Translations under genes and position numbers: made by a program
Part shown: positions 3,539 to 56,032 of the stretch, piece by piece
Layout: each line of letters opens with the position of its first letter
How positions within the stretch are numbered: position 1 is the stretch's first letter
The notes under the pieces: generated by a model
The model's database searches: none
What the model was told of the DNA's origin: nothing
What the model saw: only the letters and a program-made list of their open reading frames with translations
Source: an uncultured Candidatus Saccharibacteria bacterium
Lineage (GTDB): Bacteria > Patescibacteriota > Minisyncoccia > Minisyncoccales > UBA1441
Length of the DNA stretch: 56,032 nucleotides
NCBI GenBank assembly: GCA_964615735.1
Contig: CAZTQU010000001.1
Span: forward strand, 1-56,032
Reading direction: 5' to 3'

Positions 3539-4971
3539 CAGAGTTTAGGGAACAAAATCGTTTTCTTCTTTTTTCCTGCCAGCTGATCTTTAATTTTCTC
3601 CGCCGTTTCCGGCAAAAGAGGACTTAAAAGTTCTCCTATTTTCCCGAGCACCAAACGGAGATCGTTAATTACTTCCCCGCTGTTTTCTTTCTCTTTCCAG
3701 GGCTCTTCCCGATCAAGATATTGGTCGCAAAAAGCAGTGAGTTCCCAAATAGCTATCAGGGCTTGGCGAAAGTTAAATTTAGCCATCGCCTGATGGTATT
3801 TTTTCTCCTCTTCTTCCACCGCCTCTTCTGCCTCCAAGCTGACAAAGCTAGTTTCTCCTTTTTCCGGCCGGGCCAGGCTGAGAAGGCGGGAAGTTAAATT
3901 ACCCAGCCCATTGGCTAGATCATCCTGATAACGTTCTTGGAAGCGCAACGGAGAAAAATTCCCGTCTTTGTTAAGAGAAACTTCCCGAAGCAGAAAATAG
4001 CGCAGAGCATCCGTTGAATATTTTTTCACCAAATCCTTCGGATTGACAGACAATCCACCGCTTTTCGACATCTTCTGGCTGTTAATCGTCAGGTAACTAT
4101 GAACATAGATGATGTTTGGAAGAGGTAAGCCAGCCGCCATGAGTATTGCCGGCCAATAAACCACGTGAAACTTGAGAATATCCTTCCCAATAAAGTGAAT
4201 TTTCTCACTCTCCTGGTTCCACCAATAGCGGAAACGTTGGTCATCTTGACCGTAGCCAATAGCCGTCAAATAACTGATTAAGGCATCAAACCAACACCAG
4301 ATTTTCTGAGAACTATCTCCGGGAACGTCCAATCCCCAACCATGAGATCTCTCCGCCGATCGAGAAATACACATGTCTTCTACTCCCTCGTCTAAAAGAC
4401 TTAGAGCCTGATTTTTATAAGGAGAGGGAATAATTTTTAATTCATCCTCTTCAATTAGTTTCTTGAGTTGTTGTTTATATTTCGTCAAACGGAAAAAATA
4501 GTTCTTCTCTTCTACTAATTGGGGTTTTGTCTGATGAACCGGGCAACAACCATCAACTAATTCTTCTTTCTTAAGAAAAGTTTCGCAGCCTAGACAGTAA
4601 AAGCCCCGATATTTCTTCTGATAGATATCCGCCTTGATCTTCTTCCAAAACTTCTTAACCGCCACTTCATTCTCCGGCTGTGAAGTGCGGACAAAATAAT
4701 CAAAAGAAAGATGAAGCGTCTTCTTCAGCTCTTGGAACTCTTGACTTTTCGCCTCCGAAAATTGAGAAAGAGGCTTCTTTTCCTTTTCCGCCGCTTGAAC
4801 AATTTTTAATCCGTTTTCGTCTGTCCCGGTTACAAAAAAAACTTCTTTTCCTTGAACTTTTTGATAACGAGCCCAAGTATCCGCTTGAATCTTTTCCAGC
4901 GCATGCCCTAAATGAGGAGCAGCATTAACATAATCAATAGCTGTTGAAAGATAATATCTATTTTTTCCCAT
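3538..4971 (-). CDS. metG: Methionyl-tRNA synthetase (short form, no C-terminal tRNA-binding domain)
   Basis: AAPHLGHALEKI (HIGH), a CLGCE...CCPVH zinc knuckle, and QKMSKSGG (KMSKS). Confidence 0.95.
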   Translation of the reverse strand: MGKNRYYLSTAIDYVNAAPHLGHALEKIQADTWARYQKVQGKEVFFVTGTDENGLKIVQAAEKEKKPLSQFSEAKSQEFQELKKTLHLSFDYFVRTSQPENEVAVKKFWKKIKADIYQKKYRGFYCLGCETFLKKEELVDGCCPVHQTKPQLVEEKNYFFRLTKYKQQLKKLIEEDELKIIPSPYKNQALSLLDEGVEDMCISRSAERSHGWGLDVPGDSSQKIWCWFDALISYLTAIGYGQDDQRFRYWWNQESEKIHFIGKDILKFHVVYWPAILMAAGLPLPNIIYVHSYLTINSQKMSKSGGLSVNPKDLVKKYSTDALRYFLLREVSLNKDGNFSPLRFQERYQDDLANGLGNLTSRLLSLARPEKGETSFVSLEAEEAVEEEEKKYHQAMAKFNFRQALIAIWELTAFCDQYLDREEPWKEKENSGEVINDLRLVLGKIGELLSPLLPETAEKIKDQLAGKKKKTILFPKL

Positions 4972-18716: not shown

Positions 18717-18828
18717 CTTTTGAATAGCTATTTTCGCTCAAAATTTATATAACTTATAATTTGACGAAATATTATGACAGATGAATTAATTGATATTTAT
18801 GACGAAAATAATAATATTAACAATCAAT

Positions 18829-53785: not shown

Positions 53786-54202
53786 TTAAATTCTTTTCGT
53801 CTCGATTTTTGTTTCGAGACGGCTTAACTGGCTACCAGAAGAAATTCCCAAAAGTTCTTTCTTTTTTTTCTCGATGAGCGGCGCTTGTTTCTTTTGGATA
53901 ACAACTTCTAAATTAGGGGTAATCGTTTTTTTCTGCCAGATATAACGTTTTGGGGCGACGAGAAATTTTCCTAAATGCTTGACAAGATCAAACAAAGAGC
54001 GCCCTCCCGGTTTGATAAAAACAAAAATAGCGCTGATTATTAGAGCTAAGACGACGACGACCCAGAAGACTGTTCGAGGGAGGAAAAAATAGAAAACAAA
54101 GACGAAAATTCCCTCTCCCACTAGCCAGAGGAGTTGCTTAAAAGTCAATGGTCCCACGAGGGTCGTTTCTCGTTCAATAAACTTAGGAACTAGGAACTGC
54201 AT
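53786..54202 (-). CDS. PrgI/VirB3-like small membrane protein
   Basis: MQFLVPKFIERETTLVGPLTFKQLLWLV, then two TM helices. It lies upstream of virB4. Confidence 0.55.
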   Translation of the reverse strand: MQFLVPKFIERETTLVGPLTFKQLLWLVGEGIFVFVFYFFLPRTVFWVVVVLALIISAIFVFIKPGGRSLFDLVKHLGKFLVAPKRYIWQKKTITPNLEVVIQKKQAPLIEKKKKELLGISSGSQLSRLETKIETKRI

Positions 54203-54237
54203 AACTATTGTTAAAAGGATTTACCAAGACTTATATT

Positions 54238-54612
54238 TTATTCAACGGGTTCTCCGTAGATATCTTTTAACTTTCCGGGAGAGGAGGGCTGCAAGTAGTT
54301 TAACTTCTTCAGGTTGCCCTGTAAAGGTTGAAAAATTAAGTTCTGCAGATCACCGTTTAATTTTTGGGCTAGTTCTTCAGAGAGAGCGTACTCTTGTTGG
54401 AGGCGGGCGGGAACTTGGCCAAGATTGAATAAGCCCAGGAGTACGTCTCCGACTATATTGCCCAGCTTGGCTACCGGCTGGTCTTCTAATCCGTACTGCT
54501 CGACTAATCCTTGAACTATCTTGGCCGTTTCTTCCGAAAAGATGGCTTCCTGGATATCCGGCGGAAGATTGGGATAAATTTTCCAAAACTGGTCAATGTC
54601 GCTTTGTTCCAT
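54238..54612 (-). CDS. Hypothetical soluble 124-aa protein, first gene of the T4SS-like operon
   Basis: It is a clean ORF directly downstream of the promoter-like boxes. I recognise no family. Confidence 0.45.
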   Translation of the reverse strand: MEQSDIDQFWKIYPNLPPDIQEAIFSEETAKIVQGLVEQYGLEDQPVAKLGNIVGDVLLGLFNLGQVPARLQQEYALSEELAQKLNGDLQNLIFQPLQGNLKKLNYLQPSSPGKLKDIYGEPVE

Positions 54613-54629
54613 AAATTATTCTTTTTATC

Positions 54630-54658
54630 ATTCTACTATCTTTGTTCCCTATTGCCAA
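54630..54658 (-). promoter_or_regulatory. Putative promoter of the T4SS-like operon (TTGGCA-N17-TAGAAT)
   Basis: The reverse strand reads TTGGCA (54658-54653), a 17-nt spacer, then TAGAAT (54635-54630), about 18 nt upstream of the ATG at 54612. Confidence 0.4.
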
Positions 54659-54664
54659 GGGCCG

Positions 54665-54702
54665 GTTGCTATTGACGAAATAGAGTTGCTATTGACGAAA
54701 TA
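54665..54702. repeat. Perfect 18-nt direct repeat GTTGCTATTGACGAAATA x2 with a 20-nt period, plus a degenerate third copy one period upstream
   Basis: The two perfect copies at 54665-54682 and 54685-54702 are identical. CTATTG recurs at 54649, 54669 and 54689. Confidence 0.9.
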
Positions 54703-54720
54703 ATTAATATGTGTTATTTT
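54692..54720 (+). promoter_or_regulatory. Putative promoter of the SPFH gene (TTGACG-N17-TATTTT with a TGn extension)
   Basis: TTGACG (54692-54697) lies inside repeat copy 2. TGT-TATTTT follows at 54712-54720, and an AGGAGG Shine-Dalgarno site lies at 54761-54766. Confidence 0.35.
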
Positions 54721-54771
54721 ATTAACAACTTAGGCGTTCGTTATATATTTCCCAATAATTAGGAGGTCGAA

Positions 54772-56032
54772 ATGAAAGAAGAAGACAAGAAAGGCCAAGA
54801 AAAAACAGGAGGTTGGGGATTAACAATATTAGCTCTAGTTTTTCTGGGGGCGGCGATTTTCTTCTTTGTTAGTCGCTTTTCTTTCTGGGCTGGATTGCCA
54901 GCCCTCATCGGAGCCGTCGTGGCGCTCATTTTCGCCATTTGGCTGGAATGGGCTCCCAAGGATTTCATTCTTGGTATCAACCAAGAGGGCGACATAATGA
55001 TGGTCGTCCGCGCCGGGAAAGTTTGGAAGTTTTTCCTGCAGTGGCAAGGATGGCACTTTGCTACTCAAGGGGAAGTTCAACAAGGAGAGGCTCTCCGCCG
55101 CTGGGACGTTATCCTAGACAAGGAAGAAGTCAAAAGAAACTGGTTGAGAGAAATCTTGGGGGGATTAGTATTTGTCGGCATTCCCCCCTTCCAGCAGGTG
55201 TTAACTTACCGTTTTAAGTGGGCTCATCTGCACGAGGATGGGAGCGTCCACCACCACGAAAAAGTTCTGAACTATGCCTTCGCCAAGTGGGATATGTACG
55301 TAATCGAGATAAAGGGAATAGAGGACAAAAATGGGCTTCCTCTAGACATCACAATCCTACTTCCGATGCGCATCGTCAATCCCTACGAGGCCTTCTTTGT
55401 CGTCGGCCGCTGGCTAGTGATGGTAACTGGGCTTCTGCAGGTGCCGCTCCGCAGATTTATTGGTTCCTGCACCTATCAAGAGCTTTTAGCAATGCAGGGC
55501 GCTGATACTACCGACCCGGCTGTCAACCAGCTTGAAAGGCAGTTATGGGCCGAGGTGGAAGACGCTTTGGGTGAAGAACAAGAAAAGAGCGATTCCCAGC
55601 AGGCGGTGACTTGGGACGACGCAAAGATCCGGATTTTCGGAATTGAGATAGATAAACTCCGCGCCGGATTTAACAGCATCGACCCTCCTGAATCGTACCG
55701 CAAGTTAACGACGAAGCAATATGAAGCTTCGCAGGAAGCGGAAGCGGTAAAGATTAAAGGAGAGGCGGCTGGTTTGGCTACGGCTAAAAGGGTGACTATT
55801 GCTGTTATGGCCATCGCCCGGCAGTTAGCCGGCTATCAGCCCGAGCAAGAGCTTTCTCCTGACGAATGGCTGAAGGTCGGTAAGATGACTGACCAAGCTT
55901 ATCAGTACTGGCTGACAAGCCAGGGCCTGGAAAGTATCAAGTCCTCTGACAAGATTATTATTACCGGAGGAGGGCAGCAGGTCGGCGCCGATGTTGCCGG
56001 TCTTACCATTCAAGAAGCGGTAAGGCAGGAGA
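54772..56032 (+). CDS. SPFH/band-7 (prohibitin/flotillin-like) membrane protein, N-terminal 420 codons; it runs off the right edge and is absent from the ORF track
   Basis: My translation from ATG 54772 has no stop: MKEEDKKGQEKTGGWGLTILALVFLGAAIFFFV... (two TM helices), then ...LDITILLPMRIVNPYEAFFVV...IFGIEIDKLRAGFNSIDPPESYRKLTTKQYEASQEAEAVKIKGEAAG, an SPFH core followed by a coiled coil. Confidence 0.65.
   Translation, partial: MKEEDKKGQEKTGGWGLTILALVFLGAAIFFFVSRFSFWAGLPALIGAVVALIFAIWLEWAPKDFILGINQEGDIMMVVRAGKVWKFFLQWQGWHFATQGEVQQGEALRRWDVILDKEEVKRNWLREILGGLVFVGIPPFQQVLTYRFKWAHLHEDGSVHHHEKVLNYAFAKWDMYVIEIKGIEDKNGLPLDITILLPMRIVNPYEAFFVVGRWLVMVTGLLQVPLRRFIGSCTYQELLAMQGADTTDPAVNQLERQLWAEVEDALGEEQEKSDSQQAVTWDDAKIRIFGIEIDKLRAGFNSIDPPESYRKLTTKQYEASQEAEAVKIKGEAAGLATAKRVTIAVMAIARQLAGYQPEQELSPDEWLKVGKMTDQAYQYWLTSQGLESIKSSDKIIITGGGQQVGADVAGLTIQEAVRQE

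Follow-up and report, generated by a model that had tools for sequence, protein, structure and literature searches.

Near the end of the stretch of DNA analysed here (56,032 nucleotides in full, hereafter the window), two perfect direct repeats lie in phase between the first gene of a T4SS-like operon and a divergently transcribed SPFH gene. The question which this arrangement raises is whether the repeats are an operator, through which one factor controls both transcription units, or whether they came about in some other way. Comparison with related genomes points to the latter, and on that evidence the feature is best described as an ordinary micro-duplication of recent origin within a pair of well-conserved promoters.

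The repeat and the promoters of the 159-bp spacer

The 18-mer GTTGCTATTGACGAAATA is present twice, in identical form, at 54665-54682 and 54685-54702, i.e., with a period of 20. Both direct matching and Tandem Repeats Finder confirmed these two perfect 18-bp copies, which a sequence-only reading of the window had reported. In-phase identity covers exactly 18 of 20 positions, and the repeat (score 76, period 20) was the top of the 28 rows that Tandem Repeats Finder returned for the window. With up to three mismatches allowed, the window has no third site for the 18-mer, and two matches arose in none of 100 shuffles. The features of the region are as follows.

54238 to 54612, minus strand: p124, an ORF of 124 aa with no Pfam family; first gene of the T4SS-like operon, transcribed leftward
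54630 to 54635, minus strand: leftward -10 box TAGAAT, from the consensus scan; block ATTCTACT invariant in five aligned genomes
54653 to 54658, minus strand: leftward -35 box TTGGCA, the core of a proposed 'third copy'; ATTGCCAA invariant in the alignment
54665 to 54682, plus strand: repeat copy 1, the segment missing from the relatives in the alignment; a distal orphan -35 region, whose TTGACG (54672-54677) is not followed by a -10 box at 16-18 bp
54683 to 54684, plus strand: junction 'GA' between the copies, 2 nt, unlike either flank on direct reading of the sequence
54685 to 54702, plus strand: repeat copy 2, in which TTGACG (54692-54697) is the predicted working -35 box of the SPFH promoter (rightward), from the consensus scan and conservation
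54712 to 54720, plus strand: rightward extended -10 element TG-T-TATTTT, with TG before the second hexamer; TGTGT.ATT.TAT invariant in the alignment
54736 to 54746, plus strand: boxA-like motif GTTCGTTATAT in the SPFH leader, just past the -10 element; G.TCGTTA.AT invariant in the alignment
54761 to 54766, plus strand: Shine-Dalgarno sequence AGGAGG of the SPFH gene; GGAGG invariant in the alignment
54772 to 56032, plus strand: SPFH/Band-7 gene (Pfam Band_7, E = 1.1e-7), which runs past the end of the window

The 159-bp spacer is the divergent promoter region between p124, which is followed downstream by PrgI-like and VirB4/TraG-P-loop-like genes, and the SPFH gene. A consensus scan of 54200-55000 found six promoter-like sites, with 1.0 expected. 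The scan identified a leftward promoter, TTGGCA-17-TAGAAT, on the minus strand from 54658 to 54630 (10/12 hexamer matches), and a rightward promoter, TTGACG-17-TATTTT (plus strand, 54692-54720), in which TG precedes the -10 hexamer; it found no promoter using copy 1. A second promoter-like site, TTAACA-16-TATATT at 54722-54749 (10/12), is not conserved in G001, a relative of the same genus, and could be the true start in G000, the genome to which the window belongs. The hexamers are 17 bp apart on both strands, within the 16-18 bp of sigma-70-type promoters, and sigma-70 region 4 genes are encoded in G000. Consensus and conservation together point to the conserved boxes as active promoters.

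The sequence-only reading had placed the -35 box (TTGACG) of the rightward promoter in copy 2, and had seen a third, degenerate copy overlapping the leftward -35 box TTGGCA. Both assignments of the -35 boxes agree with the consensus scan, and both boxes are invariant in the relatives described below. CTATTG does recur at 54649, 54669 and 54689, as had been noted, but the third copy itself did not stand: the sequence at 54645-54662 (TTCCCTATTGCCAAGGGC) matches the 18-mer at only 9 of 18 positions, a score reached by 2.6% of the 18-mers in the window, and was rejected as not distinctive. This 'third copy' is simply the leftward -35 box. A search of 54560-54800 for inverted repeats or palindromic operators found just weak arms of 9-12 nt, widely separated, and an Rfam scan of 54400-55000 for structured RNA, at E up to 10, gave sub-threshold noise only.

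The ATG of p124 lies just 17 nt past the conserved -10 box (15-17 nt in relatives; minus strand, 54613-54635), and no Shine-Dalgarno sequence is recognisable before the gene. Translation of the first gene of the T4SS operon may therefore start from an mRNA with a very short leader or almost none.

A lineage-specific duplication between conserved promoter boxes, fixed in the population

G002 and G001, both of the same genus, have retained the divergent p124/SPFH pair, as have G005, of the same family, further family- and order-level genomes and several metagenome contigs. Homologues of p124 are found in 31 of 41 related genomes. The SPFH/Band-7 gene is a conserved divergent neighbour of p124 at 11 of 28 non-self loci (L005-L007, L009, L011-L013, L026, L028, L034 and L036), a count which rests on flanks of 1.5 kb. 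A survey of T4SSs (PMC12102498) makes no mention of SPFH or promoters. The genomes concerned are very small even for Patescibacteria, i.e., 362 kb for G000 at about 92% completeness and about 0.4-0.5 Mb for the relatives G001-G011.

The spacer of the window was aligned with those of G002, the metagenome contig L026, G001 and G005 (alignment A1). In this alignment the -35 and -10 boxes of the two promoters do not vary, nor do the leader motif and the Shine-Dalgarno sequence, and the sequence between them drifts, the pattern of conserved hexamers and drifting spacers that marks sigma-70-type promoters. To the invariant blocks listed above is added ATTGAC at the rightward -35 box, which stands at the same 17-bp distance from the -10 element in the relatives. 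The rightward form conserved in the relatives and in G000 is TTGAC(A/G)-17-TGnTATTTT. As judged from this alignment, the conserved element is a predicted back-to-back pair of sigma-70-type promoters, kept across the genus and the family.

The pair resembles divergent sigma-70-type promoters with an extended -10 element in its 17-bp spacing on both strands, in the TG before the rightward -10 hexamer, and in having invariant hexamers and variable spacers across genus and family. It departs from ordinary promoters of this kind in that one -35 region is tandemly doubled in the G000 species, and in that the predicted leftward transcript would have a very short leader lacking a Shine-Dalgarno sequence.

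The doubling is confined to the lineage of the window. All four relatives in the alignment (G002, L026, G001 and G005) have one copy, with a clean 20-column gap opposite the G000 sequence, and no tandem repeat (run of at least 12, period 8-60) was found upstream of p124 in any of 28 other related regions. The idea of a conserved operator array is not supported, since the repeats are missing both from the four relatives, which keep the genes and the promoters, and from these 28 upstream regions, the very outcome that the sequence-only reading had named as refuting it. The gap between the two -35 hexamers is 11-14 bp in the relatives as against 33 bp in G000. Copy 1 stands 13 bp from the leftward -35 box, which is the ancestral distance. 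In the closest relatives AATA is followed by AT, as it is in copy 2; copy 2 thus keeps the ancestral downstream context, and the junction GA is derived, having arisen during the duplication event or later.

Within the population, nine contigs, each from a different sample (JGI and Logan assemblies), encode an identical p124, and all have the same 159-bp, two-copy spacer; a tenth contig ends short of the spacer. Two metagenome contigs, which share 99.4% and 99.9% identity with the window, have the duplication as well. No single-copy variant was seen among the nine contigs at the consensus level, and since these nine independent contigs agree, an assembly artefact or a polymorphism was rejected at that level. 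The duplication is fixed in the population. Fixation in the sampled contigs is compatible with neutrality and also with selection for the new spacing.

Origin of the repeat and its rival readings

In the account in which we place good confidence, the -35 region of the conserved SPFH promoter was duplicated in tandem, over 20 bp, in this one lineage; copy 2 is the working element, copy 1 is an orphan and the effect on expression is probably small. A single head-to-tail duplication of 20 bp, caused most likely by replication slippage or a template switch, would have copied the rightward -35 region in the lineage of the species. Copy 2, at the ancestral 17 bp from the -10 element, would have stayed the working -35 box. 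Copy 1, which is as far from the leftward promoter as the single ancestral copy was and lacks a -10 partner, would be left as an orphan -35-like box. The net change would be this orphan box and the widening of the gap between the -35 hexamers from 11-14 to 33 bp, with a neutral or small effect on expression.

The repeat is like known slippage or template-switch duplications in that its two copies lie head-to-tail in the same orientation, are perfect over 18 bp, are absent from the sister lineages (the 20-column gap in four of four relatives) and form one of many such repeats in the spacers of G000. It differs from them at its junction, which holds 2 nt (GA) unexplained by the flanks. With 18 identical bases plus GA the junction is imperfect, so that a simple 20-bp slippage requires an extra step, and no flanking microhomology is evident.

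A scan of the G000 genome for in-phase runs of at least 14 bases gave 25 rows, some of which represent the same array; 21 were examined, the promoter repeat included. Fifteen of the examined rows lie outside long ORFs; beside the promoter repeat there are thus at least 14 more such repeats, whose units measure 14-35 bp. The count of perfect micro tandem duplications between genes (units 14-35 bp, 2-3 copies) is unusually high in this 362-kb genome, with sites at C5:2321, C57:20, C3:529, C3:2892, C20:1104-1179, C15:3487, C46:313, C4:1078 and C31:2952, amongst others. This abundance suggests frequent slippage or weak purging in G000 spacers, and it makes the promoter repeat one of many slippage-type events.

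The sequence-only reading had suggested that a single factor could co-control the T4SS operon and the SPFH gene, and that a genome-wide scan for the 18-mer be used to define a regulon. In G000 (362 kb in 60 contigs, about 92% complete) there was no match to the Trans_reg_C (OmpR-type), LytTR or GerE domains, nor to a Rep initiator of family PF01051 (Rep3_N) at the same completeness. The three receiver domains of this genome lie in frames of 125-141 aa, i.e., they are REC-only. With up to three mismatches the 18-mer has one extra site genome-wide, C15:1368-1385 (15/18), upstream of a gene for a 170-aa membrane protein, and this site coincides with the -35 region of a canonical TTGACG-17-TAAACT promoter. 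Other sites of CTATTGAC (C15:1381 and C34:2393) are likewise ordinary -35 regions of canonical TTGAC-N16/17-TAnnnT promoters. The likeness of these sites to the repeat therefore probably reflects the promoter consensus and not a separate operator, and no regulon emerged from the scan, its sole extra site being part of an ordinary promoter. Genome-wide, the cores CTATTGAC, TATTGACG and TTGACGAAATA fall mostly in coding DNA or in ordinary -35 regions. The 11-mer TTGACGAAATA does occur at 18761-18771, as had been pointed out, but it ends there 3 nt before an ATG, and has no -10 partner; it also occurs on the minus strand at 4478-4488, within an ORF of 477 aa. Both look like chance matches and were rejected as related sites.

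One of the CTATTGAC promoters has a further feature of its own. Downstream of the strong canonical promoter GCTATTGACA-16-TGTTATTCT at this locus (C34:2393-2959, L040), 560 bp or more are rich in hairpins, and no ORF of at least 60 aa and no Rfam family at the gathering score was found there. Judging by its sequence, this stretch may be an unannotated non-coding RNA.

How do these results bear on the other readings of the repeat? Readings of the operator or iteron type and of the phase-variation type are both unlikely. That the copies are phased sites of a response regulator or an iteron-type protein, which co-regulates the T4SS operon and the SPFH gene, is suggested by two perfect direct repeats of 20-bp period in a shared control region, and by the additional C15 site, about 0.8 kb from which lies a small sigma-r4/HTH-like frame, below the family cut-off. 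We consider such a reading very unlikely: the repeats are missing in all relatives that keep the genes and promoters, the true copies number two, with the third at only 9/18, the C15 site is itself a canonical promoter, the receivers are REC-only, and searches of the 92%-complete genome for Trans_reg_C, LytTR, GerE and Rep_3 domains found none. With respect to known systems, plasmid iterons (direct repeats of 17-22 bp, bound by Rep) share the unit of about 20 bp, the direct orientation and the regular phasing. An iteron array, however, has three or more copies as against two in G000, where the repeats are not at an origin, are not accompanied by a Rep_3 gene, are unconserved and coincide with a -35 box. 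Operators of the OmpR/PhoB or LytTR type are similar in that their direct repeats overlap or abut a -35 box, and LytTR sites have a period of roughly 21 bp, close to the 20-bp period seen here, but the corresponding DNA-binding domains were not found in G000, its receivers are REC-only and its repeats are unconserved. A copy-number switch, in which gain or loss of the 20-bp unit would toggle surface and secretion genes in an epibiont, is in our estimation highly improbable. Phase variation is known to arise through promoter tandem repeats, and the neighbouring genes encode a surface apparatus; nine of nine independent contigs nevertheless have exactly two copies and the same 159-bp spacer (as consensus sequences), and two-copy repeats of 18 bp seldom slip.

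A role for selection is a more substantial alternative, and still a rather unlikely one. The duplication may have been selected as an adaptive remodelling of the promoters, either by relieving competition between RNA polymerases, in that about two helical turns were added between tightly packed divergent promoters, or by giving the SPFH -35 box an A-rich upstream sequence, in that a more A-rich, UP-like stretch replaced GC-rich DNA. The balance of T4SS and SPFH expression would have been altered as a result. In a related form, which we rate as rather improbable as well, the competing promoters would have been adaptively uncoupled by the same distance, and copy 1 would serve as a second docking site for sigma region 4, so that the T4SS:SPFH ratio was re-tuned in a single lineage of an ultra-small epibiont. 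The duplication is indeed fixed and identical in nine samples and in strains whose other sequence diverges by up to 0.6%, but a stretch of 38 bp is expected to be unchanged anyway at 0.5% divergence. The gap between the -35 boxes is short in all relatives and long in G000, and a length of 20 bp roughly preserves the helical phase; this is nonetheless one event in one lineage, which leaves selection without statistical support, and many comparable micro-duplications lie in other G000 spacers. A slippage-type duplication of the -35 region, with little effect on expression, is the explanation that we prefer.

The leader motif and the meaning of the locus

The alignment that exposed the duplication also brought out a conserved motif in the SPFH leader. 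The boxA consensus is GYTCTTTAANA, and putative boxA elements have been placed upstream of many non-rRNA genes (PMC5725501). Against this consensus, GTTCGTTATAT of the SPFH leader matches at 8 of 11 positions and its G002 version, GCTCGTTAAAT, at 9 of 11; the SPFH leader motif differs from boxA in having G, not T, at position 5. In G000 the 8-mer of the motif recurs at two further promoters (C15:1341, minus strand, and C28:347, minus strand), each time past the -10 box and ahead of the Shine-Dalgarno sequence, and the variant GTTCTTTATAA, which matches boxA at 10 of 11 positions, follows two more canonical promoters (C8:12481, plus strand, and C47:852, minus strand). G000 thus has the boxA-like form GTTC[G/T]TTATA in the leader of the SPFH gene and in four more, and it also lies at about 418-432 of L041.

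The 16S leaders of five genomes (G000, G005, G009, G001 and G039) contain G[AT]TCT[TC]T..AAT 6-10 nt past the -10 box, and the SPFH leader motif resembles this 16S motif and takes the same place, just past its own -10 element. Searches for a promoter plus GYTCKTTA gave four matches in G000, two in G001, one in G002 and three in G005, with none in the reversed control of each genome. G000 has a gene for NusB (C3:1318-1698, matched by PF01029 with E = 1.6e-36). On these grounds it is plausible, the balance of probability being roughly even, that the SPFH leader contains a boxA-like Nus-factor site, and non-rRNA genes in this patescibacterium may be under Nus-factor control.

As a species-specific duplication of a -35 box in an ordinary conserved promoter, the repeat is itself an ordinary finding. 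It carries a caution all the same: when a direct repeat in a control region is perfect and phased, it resembles an operator array, and it took four relatives to expose this one as a young micro-duplication of a -35 region. The comparison has as its by-product a phylogenetic footprint of promoter architecture, i.e., the -35 box, the extended -10 element, the boxA-like leader and the Shine-Dalgarno sequence, for a patescibacterial lineage that is uncultivated and whose genomes are about 0.4 Mb in size. Promoters and operons around the chromosomal T4SS can be annotated with the help of this footprint. If the duplication alters expression, it would provide a small natural experiment on promoter crowding.
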